From Campylobacterales bacterium (GTDB lineage Bacteria > Campylobacterota > Campylobacteria > Campylobacterales > QNZT01), in contig JAMONX010000121.1 of the NCBI GenBank assembly GCA_027066435.1, positions 4,120-68,119 on the forward strand: DNA of 64,000 nucleotides. The letters run 5' to 3'. Position 1 is the stretch's first letter, and the number at the start of each line of letters is the position of its first letter. Shown here in pieces: positions 9,695-46,715 of this stretch. The position numbers were made by a program, and so were the translations under genes. The notes under the pieces are model-generated. The model saw only the letters and a program-made list of their open reading frames with translations. It was not told where the DNA came from and searched no databases.

Positions 9695-9840
9695 TCATCT
9701 CTACTCTCTCTTTTTTAAAAAATTGTATCTTTTTGTATCTTTTATGGAAAAATAATTTTTTTAGTTTAAATAATTTTACACTTATTATATCTTTTATCTA
9801 GTTTGCCGACTTACTTGTATCAAAAATAAGGAGTTGATGT

Positions 9841-26755: not shown

Positions 26756-28581
26756 TGATAGCAGTAAAGCAAAGAAAAAAAGATAACTATGGCTTAAAAA
26801 TGTTACTTTATATAATAGGGCTTTTTCTTATTATGGCTGCAATGTTTTATAAAATTGGACAAAATGAACCGTTAGCACCAAGCTTTGCAATGGCTCCTGT
26901 AACAGATAAGCCGATATATATTTTAAAATCATATGCAACTGCGGTAACTTATCAAAAAAATGGACTTCATCAAAGTCAATATAGCCAAAAGTTAGAAAAA
27001 TTTAATTCATATATCGCATCTATAGGGTATAAAACAGAGTATATCCAAGAGGATGGGGTTAAATCTCTTTCAATTGGAGATATACTTTTTATACCTGATG
27101 CTATAGCTTTGAGTTTAGATGCAAAAGAGCAAATTAAAATGTTTGTTAAAAGTGGTGGAAATATCTTTTTTAATTTTACAGCAGGTTTTAGTGATGCAAA
27201 AGGTAGATATTTAGGAGATGGTTTTGTAAATGAGATAACAGGATTAAAGATAAGTAAAGATAAAAAATTTATTAACTTCAAAGAGTCCATTTTTCTCACC
27301 CAAAGAGTTCTTTCACCGTTGAATAATACAAATAGTGGTATTTTACTAGATGCACCAACATATGATTTAATCCCAATTTATATCACACCTCAGAGTTTAA
27401 AACCAGATATATTTATGACAACTTATGATCAAATCAATCCGCCTCTTGCTAAAGATAAAAGTAGTGATTTTTTGCAAGAAGAGTCAGGGGCTTTTTGGCA
27501 TGGATATTATGGTGAAGGAAAGTGGTTTTATATAAATCTTCCTAGCTATATTTTTTATGACTCTTCGGAGCAACAAAATGATTATAAGCAGATAAGTCAT
27601 GCGATTATTAACTTTTTATCAACAGATGTAATAATCCAAAAATATCCTTATATCGATAGATCGAGTATAGTATTTGTTTCTGAAGATACTGAGTTTAAAT
27701 TTGAAAATTTTAAGAAGTTTAGTGATTTAGCAAGAAAATATGAAATACCTGTAACTGCATTTATAGTTTCAAGTTTGGCAGAGAAAAAAGAACATTATGA
27801 CATGATGCGTGAAATATCTAAAAATCCTTTTGTAGAGTTTGGCTCACACAGTCACAATCATAAAAAGATTGTAGATACCAATGAATCATATATCAAACAA
27901 GAGACAAGTAATACAAAAACTATACTAGACCATTTTGCGTCTAGTCCAATTATGGGATTTAGACCTCCTCGTGAAGAGTTAGATGCGACTATGAAGAGAA
28001 ACCTTAGTGAGAGTGGATTTAAGTATATATTGGGTAAAAGTCAAAATTATCTCTATCCAAGATATAGTGAGAGTGAAAATGAACTTTTGATAATTCCTAG
28101 ACATGGCACAGATGATTATAGTTATCTTATCAATTTAGATTGGGATCAAGATGAGATAGTTACTCAAATAAAAAAAGAGACAGAGTTTGTTACAGGACTA
28201 GATGGGATATTCTCACTAAGCATACATACCCATCTTTTTGCCTATAATAGCAATATAGATATAGTTGAGAAGTATTTTCAGTACTTAAAACGGAGCCCAA
28301 CACTAAAGCCGTTAAATGGTCGCTCTATTGCTCTAAGAGTAGCACAAAACAGAAATATCTATATAGATTATAGTAAAACGGGAGATACAATCGCTCTAAA
28401 TATTGAAAATAGAAGTAGCATTGGAGTTAATGATTTTCATCTAAAGCTATTTAAAAATCCAAACATAAAGATTAGTTCTATAAGTTCTAATCAAGCAAAA
28501 ATAAGTGAGGATTCTATCATAAATATAAAATATCTTGAACCAACAAGTAAAATAACACTTTTTATAGAGTTAGAAAATTGA
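26752..28581 (+). CDS. Membrane-anchored polysaccharide deacetylase (CE4/NodB domain) with an unassigned N-terminal periplasmic domain
   Basis: N-terminal TM anchor. CE4 motifs VFVSEDTE, GSHSHNH and FRPPREE in the C-terminal half. Residues ~50-290 match no motif I recognise. Confidence 0.75.
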   Translation: MMIAVKQRKKDNYGLKMLLYIIGLFLIMAAMFYKIGQNEPLAPSFAMAPVTDKPIYILKSYATAVTYQKNGLHQSQYSQKLEKFNSYIASIGYKTEYIQEDGVKSLSIGDILFIPDAIALSLDAKEQIKMFVKSGGNIFFNFTAGFSDAKGRYLGDGFVNEITGLKISKDKKFINFKESIFLTQRVLSPLNNTNSGILLDAPTYDLIPIYITPQSLKPDIFMTTYDQINPPLAKDKSSDFLQEESGAFWHGYYGEGKWFYINLPSYIFYDSSEQQNDYKQISHAIINFLSTDVIIQKYPYIDRSSIVFVSEDTEFKFENFKKFSDLARKYEIPVTAFIVSSLAEKKEHYDMMREISKNPFVEFGSHSHNHKKIVDTNESYIKQETSNTKTILDHFASSPIMGFRPPREELDATMKRNLSESGFKYILGKSQNYLYPRYSESENELLIIPRHGTDDYSYLINLDWDQDEIVTQIKKETEFVTGLDGIFSLSIHTHLFAYNSNIDIVEKYFQYLKRSPTLKPLNGRSIALRVAQNRNIYIDYSKTGDTIALNIENRSSIGVNDFHLKLFKNPNIKISSISSNQAKISEDSIINIKYLEPTSKITLFIELEN

Positions 28582-28582
28582 T

Positions 28583-29710
28583 ATGAAAGTTTTCTGGCTT
28601 GTTCTCTCTATCTTTATTATTCATCTAGATGCACAGAGTATCAAAATAGATAGAGATAAAGAGGTTCAAGATTATTATCAAAACTGGAAACAAAACTATC
28701 TTATAAAAGAGAAAAACAGTTTATATCGCATAGCAACTGATAAAAAAGATAAACAAAAAACAGTCTCTGAAGGGCAGGGATATGGGATGCTCATAACTGC
28801 CTTGATGACAAAAAATGACAAAGATTCACAAAAAGTATTTGATGGTTTGTGGAGATTTTCAAGAGATCATCAAAGCTCACTCTCCAAAAACTTAATGTCT
28901 TGGGAAGTTCCTGAAAAAAAAGGAGCAAACAGCAGTGCCTTTGATGGAGATGCAGATATCGCTTATGCTTTGATATTAGCTCACTATTTTTGGGGAAGCA
29001 AAGGAGAAATTGACTATAAAAAAGAGGCAAACAGAGTCTTAGATGCAATTTGGAAATATACGATAGGAGATAAAAGTCATCTCCCACTTTTGGGCGATTG
29101 GGTTCACAATAGTAGTGAAAAGTACAATCAATATACAGTCCGCACTTCAGACTTTATGACAGGACACTTTAAAGCTTTTTATAGATTTTCTGGTGATAAA
29201 AAGTGGCTAAAAGTAGTCAAAGCCACTCAAAAAGCTCTTCTTGATGTACAAGATAAAAAAACTGGACTAATTCCTGATTTTATCCGATATGACCATAAAA
29301 AAGGAGAATTTGTAGCTGAAAAAGAGGGCTTTTTAGAACATCATGACGGAGCATATTATTATAATGGGTGTCGAATTCCGTTTCGTCTTGGTGTTGATGT
29401 TTTGATAAACAAAGATGAAGTTTCAAAAAAGATAGTCCAAAAACTCTCACGATGGATAGAAAAAACTAGCCAAAATGACCCACTAAAGATAAAGAGTGGA
29501 TTTGAATTAGACGGTAAAGTTATCGGGGATTATTTCTCTATCGTATTTACTGCCCCTTTTGGAGTTTCAGCACTAGCAACTTCACAAAAAGATTTTGCAA
29601 CAAAAATATATGATGTTGTGAAAAATCGCCACGAAAACTATTATGAAGATAGTGTCGCACTACTTAGTTTGTTAGCGATGACTGGAAATTTTATAGATCC
29701 AACTAAATAG
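28583..29710 (+). CDS. Secreted glycoside hydrolase family 8 (endoglucanase/chitosanase-type)
   Basis: Signal peptide. GH8 signatures TVSEGQGYGMLI and SAFDGDADIAYALILA. Confidence 0.8.
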   Translation: MKVFWLVLSIFIIHLDAQSIKIDRDKEVQDYYQNWKQNYLIKEKNSLYRIATDKKDKQKTVSEGQGYGMLITALMTKNDKDSQKVFDGLWRFSRDHQSSLSKNLMSWEVPEKKGANSSAFDGDADIAYALILAHYFWGSKGEIDYKKEANRVLDAIWKYTIGDKSHLPLLGDWVHNSSEKYNQYTVRTSDFMTGHFKAFYRFSGDKKWLKVVKATQKALLDVQDKKTGLIPDFIRYDHKKGEFVAEKEGFLEHHDGAYYYNGCRIPFRLGVDVLINKDEVSKKIVQKLSRWIEKTSQNDPLKIKSGFELDGKVIGDYFSIVFTAPFGVSALATSQKDFATKIYDVVKNRHENYYEDSVALLSLLAMTGNFIDPTK

Positions 29711-29717
29711 AAAACTA

Positions 29718-30029
29718 CTAATCCTCTTTAAGTGATTGGTTCTCTAATCTTTGTTTTATCCATGAAGGATTTTTTCTACAATCCAAAACAGCATAAATGT
29801 AAATTATATTGCTTTTGATTTTATAATAGATTGAAAAAGGAAATCGTTTTGACAAAAGCCTATGATATGTTGAAATCTTTATATGAATACCAGCATAAAT
29901 ATGAAGAGATTCAATATCAGACATAATTGAGTCTAAAAAATAGTTTCCAAGTCCCTCTTTTTGGCTTTGATAAAAATAAATACCATGGGCAATGTCATCT
30001 TCTGCTTCATCTAAAATTTTAATTTGCAT
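29718..30029 (-). CDS. Type II toxin, ParE/RelE superfamily
   Basis: About 100 aa. ParE-like ends (ILDEAEDDI ... IYIYAVLDCRKNP). Overlaps the upstream antitoxin gene by 11 nt. Confidence 0.7.
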   Translation of the reverse strand: MQIKILDEAEDDIAHGIYFYQSQKEGLGNYFLDSIMSDIESLHIYAGIHIKISTYHRLLSKRFPFSIYYKIKSNIIYIYAVLDCRKNPSWIKQRLENQSLKED

Positions 30030-30276
30030 TTAGAATTTTTTGAAGCCTTTTTTTTACTAAAGAGAGATCACTAAAATTTGATTCTCCATTTTTTACTTTT
30101 AGCTCTCTTTCATTTAAGAGCTCAATATGCCATTTAGGTGAAATTTTGTTTTTATTGGCATTGTTAGATAACTCTTGCCATAACTCTTCCATTAACATAA
30201 ACTTTTCTTCAATTCCAATTTGATCTAATTTTAACGATGTTTGCATAATAGTTTTTCCATGTTTTACTTTGTTCAA
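30019..30276 (-). CDS. Putative addiction-module antitoxin
   Basis: 85 aa. The pattern EEKFMLMEELWQELS...W..ELL.ERELKVKNGES is typical of the 'addiction module component' antitoxin family. Immediately upstream of the toxin. Confidence 0.6.
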   Translation of the reverse strand: MNKVKHGKTIMQTSLKLDQIGIEEKFMLMEELWQELSNNANKNKISPKWHIELLNERELKVKNGESNFSDLSLVKKRLQKILNAN

Positions 30277-30314
30277 TTATATCATGTTTTGAAACTTTTT
30301 TATATTTTAAAAAT

Positions 30315-31301
30315 TCAAAAAAGCAAAATAGAAAGATTAAAATAACGCTCATATGCCCACAAGGATGCAATCATAGCAGTCAATGTTGAAAATCCATACA
30401 ATATAAAATACCTATAAAATCTAGTAGCTCTTGTCATAAACAGAAGAGGTACAACCACAACAATAATAGCAATTTGTCCAATCTCAACCCCAAGATTAAA
30501 TCCAAGTAGTGACCTTACTAATTCCGATGAATTTAGCATCATCTCGTTAAGGATATTTGCAAACCCAAAACCGTGAATGAGTCCAAATCCAAAAGCAAGT
30601 AACCAAATCTTTGTTTTTATCCATGCAAATATATTGTTAAGGGCTGTAAAAAGAACAGAGAGTGCGATAGTAATTTCGACAAATTGTGAATTTAGAGTGA
30701 TGATATTTAACACACTTAGTGCTAGTGTTATGGAGTGGGCGATACTAAAAGCTGTAGCAATTTTAAGAACATTTATCAGTGAAGTTTTAAGTGAGTTTTG
30801 TGGAAAAATTTCCCTCTTTTTATAGTATATTACAGAGGGTATAAGAAGCATAAGCAAAAACAAAATATGATCAAACCCAATCCAAATATGCCAAATTCCC
30901 TCAAATAAAAAGTTCATAAATGATTCAAATGCGGTAGCTTGTTGGAGCTTGATTGATATTTCATTTGTAAAAGATGAGAGAATCATAGGTTTTGAATTGT
31001 TCTGTTCATTTATAGAAAAAAATGCTTTTTGTCCTTTATCTACATCAAAAAAGAGGTTATAAAAAACCTTTGTCTCTTTTTTTGGAATTGGACAAGTTAA
31101 GTCGATATGAAGTTTGATGTATGATTGATGCACACGGCGATAAACTTCAAAATCTGTAAGTGAATTTTTGCACAATTTTTCATCAAAGGAAATTTTTAGA
31201 TGAGGTAGAACAAACTTTACAATCTCCTCTTTTTTAGCTCTTATCTCCTTCCATGAGATGATACCGTTCTCATTTGCATCTAGAGTTATAAATCTATCCA
31301 A
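30315..31301 (-). CDS. HupE/UreJ_2-type membrane protein with an N-terminal EF-hand-containing domain (probably extends upstream to ~31430)
   Basis: HupE/UreJ_2 motif GIWHIWIGFDHILFLLMLLIP plus about 6 TM helices. EF-hand loop DANENGIISWKE. The called TTG start lies downstream of an in-frame signal-peptide-like stretch. Confidence 0.7.
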   Translation of the reverse strand: MDRFITLDANENGIISWKEIRAKKEEIVKFVLPHLKISFDEKLCKNSLTDFEVYRRVHQSYIKLHIDLTCPIPKKETKVFYNLFFDVDKGQKAFFSINEQNNSKPMILSSFTNEISIKLQQATAFESFMNFLFEGIWHIWIGFDHILFLLMLLIPSVIYYKKREIFPQNSLKTSLINVLKIATAFSIAHSITLALSVLNIITLNSQFVEITIALSVLFTALNNIFAWIKTKIWLLAFGFGLIHGFGFANILNEMMLNSSELVRSLLGFNLGVEIGQIAIIVVVVPLLFMTRATRFYRYFILYGFSTLTAMIASLWAYERYFNLSILLF

Positions 31302-31499
31302 ATTATCAGACTCAAAATCAAGAATGACTCTTGGATTTGTATCATTTAAATCAAGTGAGATATAGTTTTCCTTAAGAATATCTGCATTTAAAGAGAGTGT
31401 AAAAAGTATAATATATATTATTATTTTAATGACATATCCTGATAATTTGATTTTCTATATTATAAGCATATTGTGTTAAAATACCCTTCTTAAAAAAAA

Positions 31500-31575
31500 G
31501 GGGCCTTAGCTCAGCTGGGAGAGCGCTTCGCTGGCAGCGAAGAGGTCAGCGGTTCGATCCCGCTAGGCTCCACCA
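31500..31575 (+). tRNA. tRNA-Ala (anticodon GGC), CCA encoded
   Basis: Cloverleaf readable: acceptor GGGGCCT/AGGCTCC with G3:U70, D-arm GCTC/GAGC, anticodon stem CTTCG/CGAAG with loop CTGGCAG, T-arm AGCGG-TTCGATC-CCGCT, then ACCA. Confidence 0.95.
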
Positions 31576-31611
31576 AAAAGATAGTTTATTTTGACTTTAA
31601 TATAAAAATAG

Positions 31612-31640
31612 TTGACTATCATCAATTTTTAGAATATAAT
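31612..31640 (+). promoter_or_regulatory. Near-consensus sigma70 promoter for the TonB-dependent receptor/apbE unit
   Basis: TTGACT (31612-31617), 17-nt spacer, TATAAT (31635-31640). AAGG Shine-Dalgarno and the ATG at 31687 follow. Confidence 0.5.
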
Positions 31641-31686
31641 TTTTTGATACAATTTATTGATAAATAATAACTTAAGGCAAATACAA

Positions 31687-33522
31687 ATGAAAATAATTAA
31701 ACTATCAATTATCCTAAGCTTGACTTTATCAACTCAAATTTTTGCTTCGAGTGTTGATCTTGATAAGGTTACGGTTACTACTCCAACAAAGTTTTCACAA
31801 GCACTTCAAGATACAACGGCAAATGTAAATGTTATAACTATAGATGAGTTAGAGGAGAGAAGATTTAAAACAGTTACAAAAGCATTAAGTTCTATCTCTG
31901 GATTAAATCTTTCAAGACAGGGTGGACTTGGTCAAAGTAGCTCTTTAAAGCTTAGGGGATTTGATTCAAAAAGGGTTTTGGTGTTGATAGATGGTGTAAG
32001 ATATAACAATCCAACAGGCAGAAGTGGGGCTGAATTTTCTAATCTTTTGATCGGAAATATTGAAAAGATAGAAGTTATAAAAGGTCCACAATCTGGTATT
32101 TGGGGTGCAGATGCAAGTGCCGGGGTTATAAATATCATCACAAAAAAATCAACTAAACATGGATTAAATGCTTCGATGCATGCTGAGTATGGAAGTTTCA
32201 ATACTCAAACTTATGGGTTAAATACAAATTATGCTCATGATAAATTTGATATCGCCTTAAATGCTTTGAGAGTTAAAACTGATGGTTTTTCAGCCCTTGT
32301 TCCTGAAGGTAAAGATGTAAAAGATTATGAAGATGATGGTTATGAAAATAACTCAGCAGATATCAAAGTGGGAGTTAATGTAACTAAACAAGATAGAGTA
32401 GAGGCTTTTTACAATATCATCGATTCAACAAGTGAATTTGACAATAGAAATCCAGATGATGCAAATTCTTCTGTTGATTCAAAGCAGTATTTTTATGGAT
32501 TAAGTTATGTTAGAACTGAGGGTGAAAATCAGACAAAGATTTATGCAAACCGCTCAAATTTTGAGAGATATTATAACAATAACCCAAAAAGAGATTATAG
32601 TGGATATGTAGATGAGATAGGATTAAATAGTAGAGTTGAGTATATGAAGGATTCTCAATTAAGTGCTGGAATTGACCATAAAAAGTTTAAATTGACAAAT
32701 AAAGCTAAAAAAGATTATAAAAATGAGGGTATATTTATATCTAACTCAAATAAGACTCCAGGGTTTAGGTCGGGGACAACAATATTTAGTCAATCTATAA
32801 GATATGATAAGTTTGAACACTTTGACAATAAGTTTACTTATAAGTTAGGATTAAAACATTTTCATGAAAAGATTGAAGGTTTTTGGGCTTCTGTAAACTA
32901 TGCAACTGCATATAATATTCCTACACTTTATCAGCTTTATAGCCATGTTGGAAATGAAGATTTAAATCCTGAGGAGACAAAAGGGTATGACATAACACTA
33001 AATTATAAAGGTTTTGAAGTTACCTATTTTGATAATGAAGTTAAAAACTTGATGGAGTATGTCATAGAAAATCCAAGAACATTTGAGGGAAAATTTTATA
33101 ATATTGATGGAAAGAGTAACTTAAGTGGAGTGGAAGCTTCTTATCAAGGAGATATGGAAGACATAGAGTTAATTTACAGCATAAATTATACTTACCTAAA
33201 GGCAGAAGACAACGATGGAGATAAACTTCTAAGACGACCAAAAAATAGCGTAAATCTTTCATTGGATTATTATGGGCTTTTAAATACTCATATTGGTACT
33301 TTGATTCAGTATGTTGGAGAGAGAGATGATAAAAAGAGTAGAAATATTATAAAGTTGGATAGTTATACCGTTGTGGATTTGATAGCCAACTATGATATAA
33401 GTAAACAACTTGGAATCTATGGAAAGATTGATAATGTTTTTGATGAAAAATATGAAGAGATTACGGGTTATGCGACAAGTGCTAGAGCGTTTTATGTAGG
33501 CTTTAGATATAAGATTAAATAA
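31687..33522 (+). CDS. TonB-dependent outer-membrane receptor (BtuB/CirA size class), substrate unknown
   Basis: Signal peptide MKIIKLSIILSLTLSTQIFA. Plug-domain motifs VNVITIDELEERRFKTV, LRGFDSKRVLVLIDGVRYN and IEVIKGPQSGIWGADASAGVINIITK. The ORF track begins at 31657, but the promoter and Shine-Dalgarno favour 31687. Confidence 0.85.
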   Translation: MKIIKLSIILSLTLSTQIFASSVDLDKVTVTTPTKFSQALQDTTANVNVITIDELEERRFKTVTKALSSISGLNLSRQGGLGQSSSLKLRGFDSKRVLVLIDGVRYNNPTGRSGAEFSNLLIGNIEKIEVIKGPQSGIWGADASAGVINIITKKSTKHGLNASMHAEYGSFNTQTYGLNTNYAHDKFDIALNALRVKTDGFSALVPEGKDVKDYEDDGYENNSADIKVGVNVTKQDRVEAFYNIIDSTSEFDNRNPDDANSSVDSKQYFYGLSYVRTEGENQTKIYANRSNFERYYNNNPKRDYSGYVDEIGLNSRVEYMKDSQLSAGIDHKKFKLTNKAKKDYKNEGIFISNSNKTPGFRSGTTIFSQSIRYDKFEHFDNKFTYKLGLKHFHEKIEGFWASVNYATAYNIPTLYQLYSHVGNEDLNPEETKGYDITLNYKGFEVTYFDNEVKNLMEYVIENPRTFEGKFYNIDGKSNLSGVEASYQGDMEDIELIYSINYTYLKAEDNDGDKLLRRPKNSVNLSLDYYGLLNTHIGTLIQYVGERDDKKSRNIIKLDSYTVVDLIANYDISKQLGIYGKIDNVFDEKYEEITGYATSARAFYVGFRYKIK

Positions 33523-33553
33523 TTTTCTTATAGGAGTATTCCTGCTTTGTACC

Positions 33554-34450
33554 TTGAATGCATCTGAAAATGTAGTCTCACGAACACAACTCTTGATGGG
33601 TACATATGTTACTCTCACTCTTGCATCTAGAGAGTCAGATGAAATTATAGATGGATTTAATCTTATAAGAGATATAGAGATGTCCCTCTCTAGCTACAAC
33701 CAAAATGCAAAAGTTTATAAGTTAAACAAAACCAAACAAGTGGAGTATGACGATTATCTTTTAGATGCAATAAAAAGTAGTTTATCACTATACGAACAGA
33801 CAGACGGATATTTTGATATCACGATTGGCTCTTTAACAAGGGAGCTTTATCATTTTGGGGAAGAAGAGAGAGTTCCTTTAGATAGAGAGAGAAGAGATGC
33901 TTATCTTGATATAGATGGTATTTCAGTAGATGAAAAAAATATCACATTAGAGCCAAATATCACAATCGATTTAGGAGGCATAGGGAAAGGTTATGCCGTT
34001 GATAAAGTGGCGGAGTATTTTAAATCAAAAGGCATAAATATAGGCAAAATCGCACTAAGTGGTGATATCAGATGCATAAACCCTTCTACTGTTTTTATCG
34101 ATTCTCCATTTGGAGATAAACCTATAATGAAATTACAAACCTTGCATCCAGATACTTCTATATCCACAAGTGGCACATATCGTCGTTTTGTTAAAGATAG
34201 ATCACATCATCATCTTATAAACCCTAAAACTAAAAAGCAGAGCCAAGATTTTATTTCAGTCACACTTATAACCTTGGCAAACAATACATTGATAGATGGT
34301 TTTGCAACTGCCATCGGCACAATGGATGAACTAGATGCATTGAAACTTTTGACAAAGCATCCTGAGATTGGATTTATTTTGGTGAAGTCAAATAAAAATA
34401 TAATTTATGGGAATTTGGATGGGTTGGTTATTACCCTTTCCTTGCAATAG
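33554..34450 (+). CDS. apbE: FAD:protein FMN transferase (ApbE family); the true start is probably upstream (~33509)
   Basis: ApbE motifs R...LMGT, FDITIG and DLGGIGKGYAVDK. The in-frame upstream sequence encodes a signal-peptide-like RLNNFLIGVFLLCTLNA with no ATG/GTG/TTG. Confidence 0.8.
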   Translation: MNASENVVSRTQLLMGTYVTLTLASRESDEIIDGFNLIRDIEMSLSSYNQNAKVYKLNKTKQVEYDDYLLDAIKSSLSLYEQTDGYFDITIGSLTRELYHFGEEERVPLDRERRDAYLDIDGISVDEKNITLEPNITIDLGGIGKGYAVDKVAEYFKSKGINIGKIALSGDIRCINPSTVFIDSPFGDKPIMKLQTLHPDTSISTSGTYRRFVKDRSHHHLINPKTKKQSQDFISVTLITLANNTLIDGFATAIGTMDELDALKLLTKHPEIGFILVKSNKNIIYGNLDGLVITLSLQ

Positions 34451-34838
34451 TATAAATTAACCAAGCAAATCCTAAAACCATCGCAAAAAGAGCCAAAAGA
34501 TGTATCCATACAAATATTTGAAATTCCAAAGAGATGAAATAGTGGCTAACATTTTCTAATAGTATAGTAAGATAAAGCATCACTATAAACTTTAAAACCT
34601 TTTTTTTGTCAATACTCTCTACAAAAAGTAAAAAGTGACTTAAGACAAAAGCTAAAACTGAAATTGCAAATAGATGAGGTACTGCAACCTCTAAGACTCC
34701 TTCTAAACTTTTAGTAAGTGCAGCTTCTCTAAAGCTTCCTTGAAGAATAAAAAGCCACAAGCCACTTGCAAGTAGTAAAGATGCAAAGACCAAAGTATAT
34801 TTGATAGTTATGGTGTAGAGTCTGCTACTTTGTATCAT
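34431..34838 (-). CDS. Small 4-TM membrane protein with four intramembrane His (candidate heme-b ligands)
   Basis: 135 aa, four hydrophobic helices. Its only His residues (PHLF, LSHF, VSHY, WIHL) all lie in helices. 4-nt overlap with the upstream gene. Confidence 0.5.
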   Translation of the reverse strand: MIQSSRLYTITIKYTLVFASLLLASGLWLFILQGSFREAALTKSLEGVLEVAVPHLFAISVLAFVLSHFLLFVESIDKKKVLKFIVMLYLTILLENVSHYFISLEFQIFVWIHLLALFAMVLGFAWLIYTIARKG

Positions 34839-35308
34839 AGTTTATAGATCAAGTAGAGAGTTTTAAAGCTAAGTATAAGAGCCATTAAGTGCCAAATTAT
34901 AAACAATACAACCCAAGCTATCACAGCAAACTCACCTATAAAATAGCCGGCAATTAAAAAAATAGGAGCCAAAAGTGCGGTTAAAAATAGCCCGTGAAAG
35001 ATAAATCTAGGTAACTGTTTATCTTCAGATACTCTTACGCAGATGGAAGTTAGTATGAGAAGAAGTAGCATTGAAAAAAATAGATTTATATGAATTGTCA
35101 AAAGAAGAGATTCTATCAGTATCGGTTCTATAAATGACTCTTCATCTCCCAAAATTGTAGAAATAGCTTTTGAAAATGTTAGACCAATTTGCAGGTGATG
35201 AAGCACTAAATCCAAAACTAGAAAAAGTATAATAAATAGCAAGAGACCATATAAGAGAGAGCTTAAAAACTTATTGTTTTTAAGCTCTCTTGTTGCTAAA
35301 AATTTCAT
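34835..35308 (-). CDS. Small 4-TM membrane protein with five intramembrane His (candidate heme-b ligands)
   Basis: 157 aa, four helices. His residues at LVLHHL, TIHIN, IFHGL and IWHLM. 4-nt overlaps on both sides. Confidence 0.5.
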   Translation of the reverse strand: MKFLATRELKNNKFLSSLLYGLLLFIILFLVLDLVLHHLQIGLTFSKAISTILGDEESFIEPILIESLLLTIHINLFFSMLLLLILTSICVRVSEDKQLPRFIFHGLFLTALLAPIFLIAGYFIGEFAVIAWVVLFIIWHLMALILSFKTLYLIYKL

Positions 35309-35811
35309 TTTAACTTTGTGTTGTAGAGAGCGATTGCCAATCTTGCACCATCTGTTAAGCTTTTGGCTGAAAGTGTTGCTCCGCTAATTGTAGGTATATC
35401 TTTTCCAATAGAAAAACTATTAGAGATATTTTTATCGTCAAACTGTCCCATCCAGATATCTTTTGGGATATACTCTTTTGGTTCTAAAAATGCTAAAATC
35501 TCTATAAATTTCATTTTTCCATCTTCTATGAAGTATAAAACTGTAGCTTTTTTGGTTCTCACTTTTTGGCTGATTAAGATTGCAAAACCTACTATTTTAT
35601 CTTCTTTTGTTACTTGATAGTATCTGTAAAGTTTAGATTTTACAGGAAGTTTTGCCATCTTTTTTATAGAAGATAGTTCCTCTTTTGAGAGGATAATTTT
35701 ATCTCTTTTTATATTCACATCAGATGCATAATTTTCTTTGATAATTGATATCACATCGGGTTTTGCCCAAATTGTTGTTAAGGTTAAAATTAATAGGAGT
35801 ATCCACTTCAT
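35305..35811 (-). CDS. Secreted FMN-binding domain protein (FMN_bind; predicted ApbE substrate)
   Basis: Signal peptide MKWILLLILTLTTIWA. C-terminal flavinylation motif DIPTISGATLSAKSLTDGARLA (the SGAT motif, as in NqrC/RnfG/NosR). Confidence 0.75.
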   Translation of the reverse strand: MKWILLLILTLTTIWAKPDVISIIKENYASDVNIKRDKIILSKEELSSIKKMAKLPVKSKLYRYYQVTKEDKIVGFAILISQKVRTKKATVLYFIEDGKMKFIEILAFLEPKEYIPKDIWMGQFDDKNISNSFSIGKDIPTISGATLSAKSLTDGARLAIALYNTKLK

Positions 35812-35820
35812 GTATATGCC

Positions 35821-37092
35821 TTAAAAAAGAAATCCAAGAGACAAAGATGCTGTGTTTACTTTATCGCTTTTATTTTTATCATCTTTTATCTGATAATCTG
35901 CTTTTAATACTGTTTGGTCAGTTGGGAAAAAGTTAGCTCCAAAGTTTATTATATTTGTAGCTTCTTTACTTCCTCCATTTGCTAACTTTTCTCTGGTGTT
36001 GTAGTTTTCATATTGGGCAAAAATCAATGTCTTAAAATCACTACCTATCAAAGTACCCACATCATAAGATGCAGTAACATAATATCCACTTGCTTTTTCA
36101 CTCGCATCTTCAGCATATTTTTCAGCTCCATCTAGCATTGATATAGTATAGAGTCCTTTTAAACTCAAACCTTGATAGTTATAAACAGCATGAACTTCAA
36201 ATATAGTCATAGTCGTTCCTGCAATATCATCTTTTTGATTTGAGCCATCTCCTACATACAAAGAGCCTCCAGTGAGTAAGCCATTGATTCCTCTATAATC
36301 AAGCCTGCCAACAAATGCTGGTTTAAATGGTGCTTTATTTGCTGAACCTAGGCGACCATCTCTTATCCATTTTTCTTTACCGCCTTTAGTGCTGGTGTTG
36401 TTTATATTTAGTGCATTTATGATACCCGTTGTATATTCAATCCCAGTATCTGCTATATCGCCATATACAAGCACTCCATTTTCATGCCAAGTGCTAGGGA
36501 TTAATAATTTTTCGATTGTTGGTCTTTGTACGGTTGGAAAAAGTGTAGGCTCATGTCGTAGGTTTGTGATACCCATAGGAACTAAGAGATTTCCTACTCT
36601 GATATTTGCTGATTTGTGTAGTAAAAAATCAAGATACATAAACTCTATAAGTATTTTTCCTGATACGGCACTCTCGCTATTACCATCTAATTTTACACTC
36701 TGTGAGCCTCCGTGTTCAAACTCTATTTCCGTGTTCAAAATCACTGTATCAGAAAATTTATATCCAAAATAGGGGATAAATCTATAAACATCAACAAAAG
36801 AACGGCTACCTTCAGTCTTTGCCCAAAACATTTCGCCATAACCACCGATAGAGAGAGGTGACTGGCTATAATAAACCTTAGAAGCAGCAGCGCCTAAGCC
36901 ATTGTGTGCTTTTGAATCATCGACTTTTGTAAATGAACCAGTTGATATATCGAGTAGCTCTTCAGCTAATATATCTGATTGTGTTTTGAGTAAGTCTATC
37001 TCAGTTTGTAGTTTTTCTATATCTGTTTGAGCTGTTAGTGAAGTTGTTACCAAAGCAGAAGAGAGTATAAGTGCTAAGTTTTTATTTATCAT
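35821..37092 (-). CDS. Outer-membrane porin with an N-terminal coiled coil
   Basis: Signal peptide MINKNLALILSSALVTTSLTAQT. Coiled coil DIEKLQTEIDLLKTQSDILAEELLD. Alternating beta-strand pattern with C-terminal ...SLSLGFLF. The ORF track starts at 37128 (TTG); an AAGGA Shine-Dalgarno favours the ATG at 37092. Confidence 0.7.
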   Translation of the reverse strand: MINKNLALILSSALVTTSLTAQTDIEKLQTEIDLLKTQSDILAEELLDISTGSFTKVDDSKAHNGLGAAASKVYYSQSPLSIGGYGEMFWAKTEGSRSFVDVYRFIPYFGYKFSDTVILNTEIEFEHGGSQSVKLDGNSESAVSGKILIEFMYLDFLLHKSANIRVGNLLVPMGITNLRHEPTLFPTVQRPTIEKLLIPSTWHENGVLVYGDIADTGIEYTTGIINALNINNTSTKGGKEKWIRDGRLGSANKAPFKPAFVGRLDYRGINGLLTGGSLYVGDGSNQKDDIAGTTMTIFEVHAVYNYQGLSLKGLYTISMLDGAEKYAEDASEKASGYYVTASYDVGTLIGSDFKTLIFAQYENYNTREKLANGGSKEATNIINFGANFFPTDQTVLKADYQIKDDKNKSDKVNTASLSLGFLF

Positions 37093-37111
37093 TATTTTTT
37101 CCTTTTTTGTT

Positions 37112-37128
37112 TTGATATTCATTATCAA
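37112..37128. promoter_or_regulatory. Inverted repeat TTGATA-N5-TATCAA (Fur-box-like) upstream of the porin operon
   Basis: On the minus strand, GATAATGAATATCAAAACA matches the 19-bp Fur consensus GATAATGATAATCATTATC at 13/19. The core is a 6+5+6 palindrome. Confidence 0.3.
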
Positions 37129-37170
37129 TTATGCAATTTAACAAAAGTTTACTTAAATAACAGCGAAACT

Positions 37171-37189
37171 GATAAGCATTATCATTTTG
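37171..37189. promoter_or_regulatory. Fur-box-like sequence in the porin/nosZ divergent intergenic region
   Basis: GATAAGCATTATCATTTTG matches GATAATGATAATCATTATC at 14/19 positions (counted by hand). Confidence 0.35.
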
Positions 37190-37196
37190 TGACAAT

Positions 37197-37239
37197 ATTG
37201 ACCTATGTCAATTACATATATTCAATTTTTAACTATAAT
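37197..37239 (+). promoter_or_regulatory. Class II Crp/Fnr-type activator site plus -10 box for nosZ
   Basis: Perfect palindrome ATTGAC-CTAT-GTCAAT (37197-37212). TATAAT at 37234-37239. The palindrome centre is 29.5 nt upstream of the -10 start, about -41.5 if the TSS is 7 nt past the -10. AAGGAG Shine-Dalgarno at 37265-37270. Confidence 0.55.
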
Positions 37240-37276
37240 TATAAGTGCAGGATATTATTTTTATAAGGAGGCTTTT

Positions 37277-39871
37277 ATGAAGTCGTTAGCAAGTAAGCTA
37301 GTAGCGGTTGCCTTGGGTATTACAGTGAGTGCATCTGTTGCTTTAGCTGATTCAGCACTTGAAAAGGTGATGAAAGAGCGGGGCTTGAGTGAGATAGATC
37401 TTTTAGCAGCAGCTAAAACCTATACGCCAACTGGTATGCATGACAAGTATGTTGTGTTTAGTTCTGGTGGTCAATCAGGGCAGGTTATTGTGTATGGTGT
37501 TCCATCTATGCGGATTATCAAGTACATTGCAGTTTTTACACCTGAACCTTGGCAGGGATATGGATATGATGAGGATTCTAAAAAAGTTCTTAGACAAGGA
37601 AATATCAGAGGAAAAGAGATAAATTGGGGAGATACTCATCACCCAGCACTCTCTGAAGTAGATGGAAAGTATGATGGAAAATGGCTTTTTATCAATGATA
37701 AAGCGAATCCAAGAATCGCAGTTATCGATTTGCATGATTTTGAAACAAAGCAGATAGTTGTAAATCCAGTTTTTAAATCAGAACACGGTGGAGCCTTTGT
37801 AACTCCAAATACCGACTATATTTTAGAAGCCGCACAATATGCAGCTCCACTTGATAATAATTATCATCCAATAGAGGAGTATAAAGAGAGTTATCGTGGT
37901 GGTGTGACTTTTTGGAAATTTAATAAAGATACAGGAAGAATTGAGGAAAAAAACTCTTTTACTCTTGAGATGCCTCCATATATGCAAGATATTACCGATG
38001 CAGGTAAAGGTGCAAGTGATGGCTGGGGGTTTACTAACTCGTTTAATGCTGAGATGTACACAGGTGGGATAGAGAAGGGGCTTCCTCCTTTTGAAGCTGG
38101 TATGAGTAGATTTGATACAGATTTTTTGCATGTTTACAATTGGAAAATATTGGCAAAATTAGCAGAAGATCCAAAAAATGTAAAAATCATTAATGATCAT
38201 AGAGTAATTCCTATGAGTGTTGCAGTTGCGAATAACGCACTATTTTTGATTCCTGAGCCAAAGTCTCCACATGGTGTTGATGTTTCTCCAGATGGTAAAT
38301 ATATCACCGTTTGTGGAAAACTCGATACTCACGCTTCAGTTTATAGTTGGGAAAAGATTCAAAAGTTAATCAAAGACAAAGATTATGCGGGAAAAGATCC
38401 TTACGGTATACCAATTTTGGATATGAAAAAAGCACTGCACGGTCAGGTAGAGCTAGGGCTTGGGCCATTACATAATCAATACTCGCCAGTTGATGGAGAG
38501 ATATATACATCTTTATATGTTGATTCTCAAGTAGTTAAGTGGAATTATAAAGACTTAAAAGTGCTTGATAAAGTCAATGTTCATTATAACATTGGTCATC
38601 TTGCTGGTATGGAAGGAAAATCAGCAGATCCTCAAGGGGACTTTGTGATTGCTCTTAATAAGCTTGCAATTGATAGATTTACCAATGTAGGACCTTTGCA
38701 TCCTCAAAATCATCAGTTGATTGATATCAAGGGTAAAAAGATGCAACTTCTTTATGATATGCCTCTTCCTTTGGGTGAGCCACATCAAGCTGTCTCTATA
38801 AGAGCTAGTAAATTGCATCCAGCTGTAAGATATAAGATGGGTACGGATTCAAAAACTGGTAAAATTCATCCAGGTAAAACACTTGCGGGTGAAGAGAGAA
38901 TTGAGCGAGATGGTAAAAATGTGACGGTTTATGCAACATTTGTAAGAAGCCATATCAATCCTGAAAGATTTACGGTGAATAAGGGTGATACAGTAACAAT
39001 TCACATGACAAATCTTGAGCGTGCAGAGGATGAGACACATGGATTTACAGTAAGCCAACACGGCATTCATGCTTCACTAGAACCAGGTGAGACTGCAACT
39101 GTTAAATTTGTAGCAGATCTTGAGGGTGTATTTCCATACTATTGTACGGAATTTTGTTCAGCACTTCATCTTGAGATGATGGGTTATATGATGGTCAAAG
39201 ATCCAGACAAAAAGTATACAAGTGCTAAAAAACTTAAAATGAAAACAATGTCACCAGAGCAACTCAAACAAGAATATGATAAAACAGTTGGTGTAAATAA
39301 AGCCACTGATGATGTTATTCAGAGTGTTGTAAAATTCTTAAAAGATAACAAATTTGGTGATTATCCAGCAGTTGCTGCACTTGTAACAGATGCACTTGAT
39401 CAATATGGGAAAATTCCTGCACAGAAAAAGCTCTCCGACGATGCTGTAGCAGCAGGTGATATGGATAAAGCTATTCTTTATGAGGGTATGATTTGGCAGT
39501 ATATGGTAAAAACCGCAGATGCTGGAATTAGAGCTAAAGATATGCTTGTTAGAAAACTTGCAACCAAACAGAGTTCTGCTGCAATTGCAGGAGAAAGAGC
39601 TTTCAACGAAGGTGGATGTTCAGGTTGTCATGTTATCGGAAAAGTTAGTTCTGGTCCTGATTTGACTGGTGTTTTAAGTAGGCATGAAAATGGTGAAGAT
39701 TGGGTTTCTAAGTTTATCAAGCATCCTGAAAAAATGTATGATGACCCATATGTTAAGGCTATGATTGATCACTTTAATCTTAAAATGCCTAATCAAAGTA
39801 TGAGTGACCAAGAGGTTAAAGATATTATCGAGTATATGAAGTGGATTGACGAAAACGCCAATTTGTTTTAA
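37277..39871 (+). CDS. nosZ: Nitrous-oxide reductase, clade II with C-terminal cytochrome c domain (cNosZ)
   Basis: Sec-type signal MKSLASKLVAVALGITVSASVALA (no twin-Arg). CuA motif YYCTEFCSALHLEMMGYM. C-terminal heme motif CSGCHV. The ORF track start at 37205 lies inside the regulatory palindrome; the ATG at 37277 has a strong Shine-Dalgarno. Confidence 0.92.
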   Translation: MKSLASKLVAVALGITVSASVALADSALEKVMKERGLSEIDLLAAAKTYTPTGMHDKYVVFSSGGQSGQVIVYGVPSMRIIKYIAVFTPEPWQGYGYDEDSKKVLRQGNIRGKEINWGDTHHPALSEVDGKYDGKWLFINDKANPRIAVIDLHDFETKQIVVNPVFKSEHGGAFVTPNTDYILEAAQYAAPLDNNYHPIEEYKESYRGGVTFWKFNKDTGRIEEKNSFTLEMPPYMQDITDAGKGASDGWGFTNSFNAEMYTGGIEKGLPPFEAGMSRFDTDFLHVYNWKILAKLAEDPKNVKIINDHRVIPMSVAVANNALFLIPEPKSPHGVDVSPDGKYITVCGKLDTHASVYSWEKIQKLIKDKDYAGKDPYGIPILDMKKALHGQVELGLGPLHNQYSPVDGEIYTSLYVDSQVVKWNYKDLKVLDKVNVHYNIGHLAGMEGKSADPQGDFVIALNKLAIDRFTNVGPLHPQNHQLIDIKGKKMQLLYDMPLPLGEPHQAVSIRASKLHPAVRYKMGTDSKTGKIHPGKTLAGEERIERDGKNVTVYATFVRSHINPERFTVNKGDTVTIHMTNLERAEDETHGFTVSQHGIHASLEPGETATVKFVADLEGVFPYYCTEFCSALHLEMMGYMMVKDPDKKYTSAKKLKMKTMSPEQLKQEYDKTVGVNKATDDVIQSVVKFLKDNKFGDYPAVAALVTDALDQYGKIPAQKKLSDDAVAAGDMDKAILYEGMIWQYMVKTADAGIRAKDMLVRKLATKQSSAAIAGERAFNEGGCSGCHVIGKVSSGPDLTGVLSRHENGEDWVSKFIKHPEKMYDDPYVKAMIDHFNLKMPNQSMSDQEVKDIIEYMKWIDENANLF

Positions 39872-39880
39872 AACGCTTAT

Positions 39881-39905
39881 CTAAAGGGGTTATTTCTCCC
39901 TTTAG
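39881..39905 (+). terminator. Hairpin just after nosZ (terminator/attenuator candidate inside the nos cluster)
   Basis: CTAAAGGG - 9-nt loop - CCCTTTAG, 10 nt after the nosZ stop, followed by AT-rich sequence. Confidence 0.45.
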
Positions 39906-39977
39906 ATTAATTTAAAATTATTTGATCTGATTTGACATAGTCAGATGATATTAGATAAATTTTTTAGGGGATGGGAT

Positions 39978-40757
39978 ATGAATTCATCTATGATAAAATC
40001 AAAGATTTTTGCCATTTTGGCTTTGGGGATATTTTTATACGGTTTTGTAGTACCAACAGTTGGTTTTCACGGGGCGGTGGATAAAATTGCTCAAGGTAAA
40101 GAAGATACGCTTTCACCTATAACATTTTCGATGTGGAATTTTTACAATCAAGATAGGTATTTTAGTCACTCTATGCCTAAAGAGGCAAAGGGAGATTTAC
40201 AAAAGATGATAGATGAGACTGCTGAAATTGGTGTAGCATCTGCTCCTATTTGGTCAGTTTCTCTTGAAGCTCCAAACTATCCAAAAGAGGCATTTCCTGA
40301 AGGAATTCCTGTGTTTTTTCATTTTGATGGATTTAGTGGAGAAGTTCATGAGATGAATACAATCAACCACTACATAGGTATGGATCCGATGGAGAGAGGT
40401 GGTCCATATGAAAGATTGTTAGCTCCTTATGCTTTGGTTTTTACAGCATTTTTAATGTTCTTGTTTATTATTTACAATAAAAAGATTTTTTCACTTTTTA
40501 TGCTTATACCTGCCTTTTTGCCACTTATATTTATAGGGCTTTACTCTTATTGGCTCTATTGGTTTGGACACAATATGCATGATTATGGTGCATTTAAAAT
40601 CAAACCATTTATGCCGACTGTTTTTGGAGATGGAAAGGTGGCACAATTTGTTACACACTCTTATCCTGGACTTGGGTTTTGGTTACTACTGGCGATTAGT
40701 CTTCTTTCACTTTTGGCGATTATATCAAGGTCAAAAGCACTTAAAGCTCAGTACTAA
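39978..40757 (+). CDS. nosB: NosB, clade II-specific membrane protein
   Basis: Position directly after nosZ. About 4 TM helices with a periplasmic loop. Matches the Wolinella-type gene order. The ORF track starts at 39945; an AGGGGA Shine-Dalgarno favours the ATG at 39978. Confidence 0.7.
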   Translation: MNSSMIKSKIFAILALGIFLYGFVVPTVGFHGAVDKIAQGKEDTLSPITFSMWNFYNQDRYFSHSMPKEAKGDLQKMIDETAEIGVASAPIWSVSLEAPNYPKEAFPEGIPVFFHFDGFSGEVHEMNTINHYIGMDPMERGGPYERLLAPYALVFTAFLMFLFIIYNKKIFSLFMLIPAFLPLIFIGLYSYWLYWFGHNMHDYGAFKIKPFMPTVFGDGKVAQFVTHSYPGLGFWLLLAISLLSLLAIISRSKALKAQY

Positions 40758-40760
40758 AAC

Positions 40761-41966
40761 ATGCGACTTTTTATCATATTAGCACTATGTTTTGCTTTAG
40801 GTAGTGCTAATAGTTTGCAAGATGTTATTGATAAAGCGGAAGAAAATTCGATTATCAATCTTCCCAAAGGTCTTTATAAAGGCAATATTGAGATAAAAAA
40901 GCCATTAACGATTATAGGTCATCCTGATGGTTCTACGATTTATGGTGATGGAGAGGGGACTGTCATAAAAATCTCAAGCTCTTTTGTAACACTTAAAAAT
41001 CTCACCATTAGACATAGTGGCGAGATGCACTATAGTTTGGATTCAGCGATTAGAGTTATTGAGTCAAAATATATTGAGATTATAGATTGTGATATTGATG
41101 ATTCTCTTTTTGGAATAGACCTTCAAAATGTCTCAAATTCTAAAATTATAGGAAATAAAATAAAATCTAAAGATTTTGATTTAGGTCTTCGAGGTGATGG
41201 AATTAGAGTTTGGTATAGCAATGATAATATAATCAAAAAAAATCATCTTAGCTACTCTCGTGATATGGTAATTTGGTATAGTCATGGTAATTTGATTGAA
41301 GAGAATTTTGCAGAGTATGGTAGATACTCTTTGCATTTTATGTATACAGGTGCAAATATAGTTAAAAATAATACTTTTGAACACAACTCTGTGGGGATAT
41401 TTTTTATGTACTCTCGTGATACGATTGCTACTGGTAATGTCATAAAAAATTCACTAGGAGCTACAGGCATGGGAATTGGGCTTAAAGAGGTTTCTAACTT
41501 TATTGTAAAGGATAATACGGTGATTTATTGTGCAAAGGGGTTTTATATCGACTGGTCGCCCTTTGAGCCTGATATGAGAAATATCATAGAAGAGAACAAT
41601 ATACTTTATAATGCTACGGGAATGCATTTTCACGCACTTAGCGTCCATAATGATATCAAGAAAAATAATTTTGTAGGCAATATGGAAAATGTAGTCAATG
41701 ACTCAAAAAAAACTCAAATATCTAAAAATAGTTGGGATGAAAACTATTGGGATGACTATCAGGGGTTTGATAGAGATAAAGATGGCTTTGGAGATACTCC
41801 CTACCATAGTTTTGCCTATGCAGATAAGATGTGGCTTTACAATCCTAATGTGAAATTTTTCTATGGTTCTCCTGTAATAGCTATTATAGATTTTTTAGCA
41901 AAATTGGCACCATTTTCACAACCAGTACTTTTGTTGAGTGACCAAAATCCAAGGATGAAACGATGA
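40761..41966 (+). CDS. nosD: NosD, periplasmic beta-helix accessory protein
   Basis: Signal peptide. Repeated parallel beta-helix units (I.N..I.....GI.L). Confidence 0.85.
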   Translation: MRLFIILALCFALGSANSLQDVIDKAEENSIINLPKGLYKGNIEIKKPLTIIGHPDGSTIYGDGEGTVIKISSSFVTLKNLTIRHSGEMHYSLDSAIRVIESKYIEIIDCDIDDSLFGIDLQNVSNSKIIGNKIKSKDFDLGLRGDGIRVWYSNDNIIKKNHLSYSRDMVIWYSHGNLIEENFAEYGRYSLHFMYTGANIVKNNTFEHNSVGIFFMYSRDTIATGNVIKNSLGATGMGIGLKEVSNFIVKDNTVIYCAKGFYIDWSPFEPDMRNIIEENNILYNATGMHFHALSVHNDIKKNNFVGNMENVVNDSKKTQISKNSWDENYWDDYQGFDRDKDGFGDTPYHSFAYADKMWLYNPNVKFFYGSPVIAIIDFLAKLAPFSQPVLLLSDQNPRMKR

Positions 41967-42751: not shown

Positions 42752-42754
42752 GAA

Positions 42755-43887: not shown

Positions 43888-43896
43888 GGAATTATC

Positions 43897-46712: not shown

Positions 46713-46715
46713 AGG

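Follow-up and report, generated by a model that had tools for sequence, protein, structure and literature searches.

A conserved module of ApbE, a porin, an RnfG-like flavoprotein and paired four-helix membrane proteins: a candidate iron-reduction pathway in Campylobacterota and Aquificota

The 64,000-nucleotide stretch of DNA studied here (hereafter, the window) comes from a Campylobacterales bacterium (assembly GCA_027066435.1, contig JAMONX010000121.1, positions 4,120 to 68,119). Near its middle lie five genes that constitute a real, conserved and uncharacterised module, consisting of an outer-membrane porin, a secreted flavin mononucleotide (FMN)-binding protein, a pair of small membrane proteins with four transmembrane (TM) helices each, and the FAD:protein FMN transferase ApbE. 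Four of these genes form an operon on the minus strand. The first encodes an outer-membrane beta-barrel channel (35821-37128; 423-435 amino acids), and it is followed by genes for a 168-residue secreted, RnfG-like FMN-binding protein that is a predicted ApbE substrate (35305-35811), and for two 4-TM proteins of 157 residues (TM157; 34835-35308) and 135 residues (TM135; 34431-34838), which correspond to the N- and C-terminal halves, respectively, of aq_1264 of Aquifex aeolicus, a protein in which the two are fused. The operon encodes no inner-membrane protein besides TM157 and TM135. On the plus strand, apbE occupies 33554-34450 if read from its first canonical start, or 33509-34450 from a probable ATA start. 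An earlier reading of this DNA, made from the letters alone (the original prediction), had proposed that these genes, together with a neighboring TonB-dependent receptor (TBDR), make up a periplasm-directed flavin/haem electron-transfer system. Its gene positions all agree with our open-reading-frame map, and the ATGA overlaps that it described between the last three minus-strand genes are evident on direct inspection of the sequence (AAAATGAAA and CTATGATAC). The 3' ends of apbE and the TM135 gene converge and overlap by 20 nucleotides. A convergent 3' overlap of 20-40 nucleotides between apbE and the last TM gene is also found in distant relatives (loci L011, L019 and L026), and this recurrence suggests that the tail-to-tail arrangement is itself conserved.

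The ApbE of the window scores 184.9 bits (E = 2.8e-54) with its Pfam family (PF02424), for which the cut-off is 25.6. When read from the first canonical start (TTG 33554), which lies 31 nucleotides beyond the TBDR gene, the protein has no signal peptide. Orthologous ApbEs all possess one, and all of them start with ATG, GTG or TTG. A textbook signal peptide, MRLNNFLIGVFLLCTLNA, with predicted cleavage before SE, is encoded in frame further upstream, from ATA 33509, a rare start codon; this stretch overlaps the end of the TBDR gene. ATA 33509 is the probable start of this ApbE, which would then be exported.

The claim that the secreted partner is an FMN_bind protein requires some nuance. Taken alone, the window protein falls just under the cut-off of the Pfam FMN_bind model (PF04205; 21.1 bits versus 22.0), and its orthologue in L016 lies above it (27.1 bits). 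A profile built from 16 orthologues matches RnfG (PDB 9eri_G; E = 1.9e-8) over the whole domain, including the flavinylation site. In that alignment, the window sequence ISGATLSA is superposed on the flavinylated RnfG motif ITG(A/S)TITS (ITGSTITS in 9eri). The SGAT motif that had been noticed earlier is indeed present at residues 143-146, with flavinylation predicted at Thr146, and it is kept as [ST]G[AS]T[LM]SA in all 14 aligned orthologues. The protein lacks a membrane anchor, and its signal peptide is short and cleavable. On the strength of its profile and motif, it is a homologue of RnfG and an obvious client for ApbE, by which it is predicted to be flavinylated.

As judged by Pfam, the membrane partners TM157 and TM135 are paralogs within the uncharacterised family PF27139 (Aq_1264_TM), an assignment that derives from the database's precomputed annotation of homologues: a protein identical to TM135 (P0011) carries PF27139 as a strong match, and close homologues of TM157 carry it as a weaker one. 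Further, TM135 aligns with residues 201-285 of aq_1264 (E = 3e-10), and TM157 with residues 1-88 of the fused protein of Sulfurihydrogenibium azorense (E = 9e-9). A direct profile-profile comparison of TM157 with TM135, made with shallow alignments, was not significant; their paralogy is deduced from the shared Pfam family and from natural fusions of the two. One such fusion, P0065 (312 residues), joins a 157-like domain to a 135-like domain. As a search with it revealed, Aquificota as a rule have the fused 8-TM form (A. aeolicus aq_1264, S. azorense and Hydrogenobacter). In the split form, both paralogs are side by side wherever the context is known. A second type of fusion, P0081 (485 residues; L021, 529-1986), links a 135-like 4-TM domain via an extra TM helix to a complete ApbE. 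In a longer version of the P0081 locus, its gene is preceded by genes for proteins of 467 and 176 residues, the sizes of the porin and the FMN protein, and feoB is nearby. The charge distribution of the 4-TM domain and the extra helix ahead of ApbE in P0081 indicate that the domain is N-in/C-in. If so, the ApbE of P0081 is periplasmic, because the additional hydrophobic fifth helix intervenes.

This family is rare: a hidden-Markov-model search of 1.84 billion cluster representatives yielded only 68 relatives, the fusions P0065 and P0081 among them. Scans of both window proteins with NCBIfam and with a Pfam set that lacked the PF27139 model returned no family match, and neither a Pfam scan of 41 fused homologues nor a profile search of Protein Data Bank sequences gave anything relevant. 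The idea that TM157 and TM135 could serve as a transmembrane electron path had been open to refutation by a match to a well-known unrelated family; in Pfam, NCBIfam and PDB profile searches they stand outside the known permease and cytochrome families, and the idea survives. It likewise withstands two further checks that could have gone against it, since three histidines are conserved in homologues and the synteny reaches a second phylum (both described below).

The original prediction drew particular attention to nine histidines in the two proteins. This count is right (five in TM157 and four in TM135), but by conservation only three or four of them matter. In an examination of 56 N-half and 116 C-half sequences, three are invariant. 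H73 of TM157 is present in 56 of 56 N-half sequences, whether split or fused, and H55 and H68 of TM135, which are 13 residues apart in the second TM helix, are present in 116 of 116 C-half sequences. Of 67 family representatives, 57 carry the resulting signature, PH-x12-H, several with no other histidine at all. Position 140 of TM157 is a histidine in all Campylobacterota and a glutamine in most Aquificota fusions. The remaining five histidines are not conserved. Among these, H113 of TM135 (34500-34502), at the start of the fourth TM helix, is the sole histidine at its position in the family; 103 of 116 relatives have lysine there.

An AlphaFold2 model of the S. azorense fusion, calculated with 41 homologues, has high scores (predicted local distance difference test, pLDDT, 90.5; predicted template-modelling score, pTM, 0.89). 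It features eight TM helices in two equivalent four-helix halves, each with one short periplasmic surface helix in its TM1-TM2 loop. The conserved periplasmic loop is acidic in TM157 (G-D/N-E-E-x-F-I-E-P) and reads YYLG..E.F..PK in the C-half. Judged by helix position, H73, H140/Q and H55 are located 8-10 residues below the periplasmic surface, and H68 is near the cytoplasmic end.

These features could also be read as those of a transporter. It is conceivable, if improbable, that the 4-TM pair is a permease for Fe2+ or another cation, that the invariant histidines are its transport site, and that the flavoprotein receives its electrons from elsewhere. The equal depth of H73, H140/Q and H55, the strongly acidic periplasmic loop G-D-E-E-x-F-I-E-P and the odd number of invariant histidines would suit a permease, as would the fact that the operon, which is apparently Fur-controlled (see below), has no other inner-membrane transporter. 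This proposal is countered by the lack of a conserved acidic residue in the membrane core, and it would leave the flavoprotein without an electron source at most loci. Moreover, the tight coupling and fusion to ApbE and the FMN protein fit every known flavinylation system, in which the membrane partner is the electron path (PMC8238504).

The gene order is conserved. A scan of Campylobacterota using one genome per GTDB species identified 13 loci, in metagenome-assembled genomes (MAGs) of Sulfurovum, Sulfuricurvum, Campylobacterales and Helicobacteraceae. At 12 of the 13, the porin gene is followed in unbroken order by the genes for the FMN protein, the 157-like protein and the 135-like protein. 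The exception, L015, has the TM pair without a porin or FMN protein. At that locus (7143-10051, from a Sulfurovum MAG), the paralogs are divergent from genes for a Crp-family regulator and a periplasmic MsrA-thioredoxin-MsrB fusion, and apbE is 5 kb away, behind a gene for a DUF255 thioredoxin-like protein. In the Sulfurovum loci, such a DUF255 gene precedes apbE, and dsbD is nearby. As in the window, apbE is convergent or adjacent in L005, L011, L013, L014, L019 and L026; in L017 and L015 it lies 2-5 kb away.

The same genes are found in a second phylum. In A. aeolicus, apbE, a porin gene (436 residues), the gene for Aq_1262, an FMN_bind gene and aq_1264 form an operon on one strand, and S. 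azorense has an operon of apbE, a porin gene (456 residues), an FMN_bind gene and the fused TM gene. The FMN protein of the window matches that of Aquifex with an E-value of 7e-30, and its porin is a full-length homologue of both Aquificota porins (E = 1e-60 to that of Aquifex). Synteny thus extends across Campylobacterota and into Aquificota, and at none of these other loci is nosZ nearby. The module recurs among bacteria of vents and hot springs. The synteny, the single operons of Aquificota and the TM-TM and TM-ApbE fusions establish the FMN protein, the 4-TM pair, the porin and ApbE as a conserved unit.

At several loci, additional genes have been inserted into or placed beside this unit. 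In L016 (7322-8554; Sulfurovum MAG), the slot between the porin and FMN genes is filled by a gene for a CCP_MauG di-haem peroxidase lipoprotein (E = 3.9e-41), which shares 4 nucleotides with the FMN gene. Aq_1262 (PF27085), a lipoprotein of about 560 residues with two CxxCH haem-c motifs (CYVCH and CIACH) and no similarity to CCP_MauG, fills the same slot in Aquifex (L022, 7792-9486), in L019 (272-1927) and in L020. We found no Aq_1262 homologue in the window. Two independent insertions of di-haem c proteins suggest that the FMN protein and its membrane partner transfer electrons as a unit to which periplasmic haem proteins can be connected. They also raise an alternative that we regard as unlikely, namely that the module is a general supply of periplasmic electrons to di-haem cytochromes c, serving oxidative-stress defence or some other reduction rather than iron uptake. 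The translational coupling of the peroxidase gene in L016 and the recurrence of Aq_1262 in Aquifex, L019 and L020 speak for this possibility, as does the adjacency of the L015 TM pair to the periplasmic MsrAB-thioredoxin gene. However, the operon contains no such enzyme at most loci, that of the window among them; the regulatory boxes described below are of the Fur type, not the PerR type; and H2O2 as the substrate would hardly call for a dedicated, highly conserved outer-membrane channel.

Other neighbors are linked to iron. In Aquifex and at the P0081 locus, feoAB is close by, and in L017 the apbE operon includes a ferrochelatase gene. The latter could be viewed as a sign of haem handling, in which the 4-TM proteins would hold haem as cargo, as 4-TM HRG-type haem permeases do, and the flavoprotein would reduce it. 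Iron regulation and invariant histidines in TM helices are compatible with this notion. Yet the ferrochelatase linkage is confined to one operon, haem normally requires a TonB-dependent receptor rather than a porin-sized barrel, and the 4-TM proteins have no homology to any haem transporter; we therefore deem it very unlikely. In a pair of related MAGs (L001, 1895-8086, and L009), the porin operon is directly downstream of pstSCAB-phoU-phoBR. A functional link to phosphate was considered on account of this adjacency and rejected, as it is absent at other loci and a Fur-like box of 14-16/19 separates the two units.

The porin is a constant companion in this arrangement. In the window, its likelier start is ATG 37092, which follows an AAGGA Shine-Dalgarno sequence. 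The protein has a signal peptide, an N-terminal coiled coil and an aromatic C-terminal residue (a terminal F). An alignment of 13 members contains 52 invariant columns, and its conserved features include SIGGYGE, a strand with an alternating N-x-E-x-E-x-E pattern, and a long loop, P-x-G-x5-HEP-x2-F-x-T-x2-R-x3-E-x6-TW. The acidic ladder of N-x-E-x-E-x-E should face the lumen of the barrel, and the degree of conservation marks the protein as a putatively specific, rather than general, channel. Porin_O_P is weakly matched by four of the 13 family members (best E = 1.4e-6) and Porin_4 by two; the window's porin has but a weak match to OMP_b-brl (E = 0.01). A single-sequence structure model had a pLDDT of 30.8, and a search of the PDB with the family profile returned coiled-coil peptides only. 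Two further porins, the znuA-linked coiled-coil porin of S. azorense and the feo-linked porin of Aquifex, were evaluated as family members and set aside, being unrelated or marginally related.

The intergenic region between the porin gene and the divergent nosZ bears on the regulation of the module. When the entire window was scored against the 19-bp Fur consensus, its single best site (16/19; GAAACTGATAAGCATTATC, 37165-37183) was found here, as were two of its three 15/19 sites. This distal box, with the core TGATAAG-C-ATTATCA, spans 37165-37189 (16/19 and 15/19), and its score was reached in 0 of 1000 dinucleotide shuffles. It overlaps the -10 element of the predicted porin-operon promoter on the minus strand (37184-37211; TTGACA at 37211-37206, a 16-nucleotide spacer and CAAAAT at 37189-37184), which agrees with the consensus at 10 of 12 positions and is called from the consensus only. 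A proximal Fur-box-like site (37108-37132; 14/19 and 13/19) is beside the ribosome-binding site of the porin gene. Boxes of the Fur type scoring 14-17/19 also occur in the roughly 250 bp that precede the porin gene at 12 of 13 orthologous loci (for example, TAAAATGATAATCATTATC in L002), with shuffle p-values below 0.05 in 10 of 13 upstream regions and of 0.004 or less in six. Their cores are of the 7-1-7 type, TGATAAT-n-ATTATCA (G2/C14), which is not that of PerR. Because these predicted sites are conserved in orthologues, we place the porin operon in the putative Fur regulon of these organisms.

Iron control had been invoked in the original prediction as well, there on account of Fur-like sequences near the TBDR promoter. 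Iron control itself gains support from the boxes at the porin promoter; the sequences cited for it do not, for the TBDR-promoter sites score 11-12/19, a background level, as 275 sites in the window score 12. The promoter of the TBDR and apbE genes (31612-31640, plus strand; TTGACT-17-TATAAT) is, as had been stated, close to the consensus; with agreement at 11 of 12 positions, it ranks first in the region. Overall, promoter-like sites are not more numerous than expected by chance (34 found; 29.8 expected).

The TBDR (31657-33522, plus strand; Pfam Plug, 1.2e-24, and barrel, 7.1e-35) was formerly counted as part of the system. It has no homologue at any other locus examined, which removes it from the module; in this genome only, it is probably co-transcribed with apbE. 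The protein is BtuB-like in size and generic by Pfam. A role as a BtuB-type receptor for vitamin B12 is not supported, as the protein scores 287 bits against the BtuB equivalog TIGR01779 (cut-off, 599.7) and there is no riboswitch: within 30000-38000, neither a cobalamin riboswitch nor any other Rfam element besides a tRNA was detected.

Likewise, the nos genes appear to be neighbors by circumstance. The divergent nosZ, which starts at 37205 on the plus strand, encodes cNosZ, the clade II enzyme with a C-terminal cytochrome c domain, and it heads a complete nos cluster of the Campylobacterota type (nosZ-B-D-G-C1-C2-H-F-L-Y-L; 37205-47195). Besides cNosZ, this cluster encodes a 270-residue membrane protein and a 205-residue protein without a Pfam match, NosD, a NosG-like 4Fe-4S protein, cytochrome c and a NosH-like protein, and then NosF, NosL, NosY and a second NosL. 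In clusters of the Wolinella type, electron input is the task of NosGH and the NosC cytochromes. Since NosG, NosH and c-type cytochromes are already encoded in the window's nos cluster, the role in electron input to nitrous oxide (N2O) reduction that had been left open for the FMN module is unlikely. A broader form of this idea would have the module serve nos either by feeding electrons to NosZ in place of NosR or by acquiring copper for NosZ maturation. It draws on the divergent orientation and short shared intergenic region, as well as on the presence in NosR of an FMN_bind domain that is flavinylated by ApbE (PMC8238504). We find it hardly credible: nosZ is not nearby at any of the 13 Campylobacterota loci or in the Aquificota operons, the local cluster is complete without the module, and the distal Fur box is situated over the predicted porin -10 element and upstream of the predicted nosZ -35 element. 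Thus, because their homologues are missing at all other loci, the TBDR and the nos genes are local neighbors and not components of the module.

Taken together, the client flavoprotein, the membrane pair, the channel and the Fur boxes are consistent with an ApbE-dependent, Fur-repressed pathway of reductive iron acquisition that spans both membranes, an interpretation that we favor over the others while holding the case for it to be evenly balanced. The genes present, their homology, synteny and fusions, the conserved residues, the topology and the conservation of the Fur boxes are established by the analysis. In the following scheme, we infer that the FMN protein is flavinylated, and likewise which cofactor, electron donor and substrate take part and which way the electrons run. 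On iron limitation, Fur would leave its boxes over the operon promoter. The porin, as a substrate-specific channel of the trimeric-porin type with an acidic lining, would admit ferric iron or small ferric complexes to the periplasm. There, exported ApbE would attach FMN to Thr146 of the RnfG-like protein. The 4-TM paralogs would form a pseudo-symmetric eight-helix heterodimer (a single fused chain in Aquificota) that could dock the flavoprotein on its conserved periplasmic loops and pass it electrons from the membrane by way of one or more cofactors, probably b-type haem, held by the invariant histidines. The most likely source of these electrons would be menaquinol, which we assume because the membrane proteins have no cytosolic domain. 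The reduced flavin would then convert Fe(III) to Fe(II), to be imported by a separate transporter, such as FeoB.

Several observations weigh against this scheme. The operon lacks a gene for an Fe(II) transporter. In about one-third of the informative Campylobacterota loci (L001, L002, L009, L016 and L018), apbE is not within reach. The membrane family has no match in sequence or fold to DUF4405, cytochrome b561, MsrQ/Ferric_reduct, PepSY_TM or Ni_hydr_CYTB, and the best Foldseek match has an E-value of 0.48 with a TM-score of at most 0.26. Three is an odd number of invariant histidines for two bis-histidine haems, and the fourth candidate, H140, is the one that gives way to glutamine in most Aquificota fusions. 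Regarding regulation, a search of the Aquificota operons with the enterobacterial consensus turned up no Fur-like box, L016 has none, and the only match in L013 is a 14/19 site near the start codon.

The proposed iron-acquisition pathway has precedents. Flavinylation systems have repeatedly been tied to assimilatory iron reduction (PMC8238504). Extracytosolic electron transfer based on flavinylation has so far been sorted into five classes of membrane apparatus, plus DUF4405, and about 4% of apbE genomes are left as "orphans" (PMC8238504). Small, histidine-bearing b cytochromes, DUF4405 and FezC, are also associated with apbE (PMC10979944). Among the nearest known systems are the flavinylation-associated assimilatory iron-reductase clusters with PepSY-like/DUF2271 and MsrQ-like proteins (Meheust et al. 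2021, PMC8238504). Like the present module, they combine ApbE, a secreted flavinylated protein, control by an iron repressor and a small histidine-bearing membrane protein without a cytosolic domain, and they are occasionally linked to outer-membrane uptake components. They differ in that the membrane subunit here is Aq_1264_TM, with no Pfam match to PepSY_TM or Ferric_reduct, the substrate protein is an RnfG-like FMN_bind protein rather than DUF2271, and a dedicated porin is an invariant member of the operon.

The DUF4405 and FezC cytochromes, associated with flavinylation and ferrosomes, are again small helical membrane proteins encoded beside apbE, and their TM histidines are the most conserved residues; the haem sites of FezC are built by dimerisation (Huang et al. 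2024, PMC10979944), and the 4-TM paralogs would do much the same. They have no detectable sequence relationship to Aq_1264_TM, they comprise six TM helices instead of two sets of four, and they have four invariant histidines, not three; for the proteins described here, haem is a prediction.

Listeria's extracellular electron transfer locus (FmnB, PplA, EetA, EetB and Ndh2) resembles the module in having an ApbE-type transferase, a secreted, flavinylated FMN_bind protein, two small membrane proteins and ferric iron as the acceptor, the last being presumptive in our case. In contrast, the module resides in a diderm host and includes an outer-membrane channel, it lacks Ndh2 and a demethylmenaquinone-synthesis gene, its membrane proteins are unrelated to those of Listeria, and its Fur control points to an assimilatory rather than a respiratory role. 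RnfG and NqrC are homologous to the FMN protein and share its flavinylation site, but they have a membrane anchor in place of a cleavable signal peptide, and the other Rnf/Nqr subunits are not present here. Finally, the N-terminal module of NosR has an ApbE-flavinylated periplasmic FMN_bind domain near nos genes, as is predicted in the window; the NapH-like Fe-S membrane domain of NosR has no counterpart in the module, which elsewhere occurs without nos, and the nos system of the window uses NosGH.

Iron-linked, ApbE-dependent extracytosolic electron transfer is thus a known phenomenon, and what is new here is the combination of an unrelated membrane protein with an obligatory porin. Our search of a literature library found no paper that mentions aq_1262, aq_1263 or aq_1264 or these Pfam families. 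The flavinylation surveys and a 2025 review of ApbE describe no porin-linked or Aquificota system, and a transcriptome paper on Sulfurovum S8 deals with OprD-type porins only. Surveys that go by domains would overlook the module, given an FMN protein that scores no higher than about the Pfam cut-off and a membrane partner that is unannotated. We tentatively suggest, with somewhat more doubt than conviction, that the Aq_1264_TM pair or fusion, a pseudo-symmetric twofold four-helix bundle whose redox cofactor would be held by only three invariant histidines, represents a sixth and structurally unprecedented class of transmembrane electron-transfer apparatus for ApbE-flavinylated proteins, and that it makes up, with a dedicated cation-selective porin, a complete, Fur-controlled route for the reductive uptake of iron through both membranes, free of TonB and siderophores, in Aquificota and vent Campylobacterota.

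If this is true, then the family would embody a new fold for a membrane redox protein, and a porin could be the obligate operon partner of a periplasmic reductase. The module would also account for some of the "orphan" apbE genomes. Further, a siderophore- and TonB-independent route for iron would be available to the dominant chemolithoautotrophs of hydrothermal vents and hot springs. Cultivable models exist in A. aeolicus (aq_1259-aq_1264) and S. azorense.

The window has further features. A tRNA-Ala(GGC) gene (31500-31575) lies between the TBDR promoter and a gene for a homologue of HupE/UreJ_2 metal transporters of the Ni/Co type (30315-31301, minus strand; E = 1.3e-45), separating the two units. 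The latter protein has an N-terminal extension of about 130 residues that opens with an EF-hand-like loop, DANENGIISWKE, for which the Pfam EF-hand_5 model returns an E-value of only 0.17. Next to it is a toxin-antitoxin-like pair (29718-30276, minus strand), in which the gene for an 85-residue Unstab_antitox protein (8.4e-9) overlaps that for a 103-residue partner without a family match. An exopolysaccharide-type cluster at 21543-29710 encodes a tetratricopeptide-repeat protein, a family-2 glycosyltransferase, a polysaccharide deacetylase and a family-8 glycosyl hydrolase. Beyond the nos cluster, a gene for transfer-messenger RNA (49847-50227, minus strand) specifies the tag peptide ANNTDYRPAHALAA.

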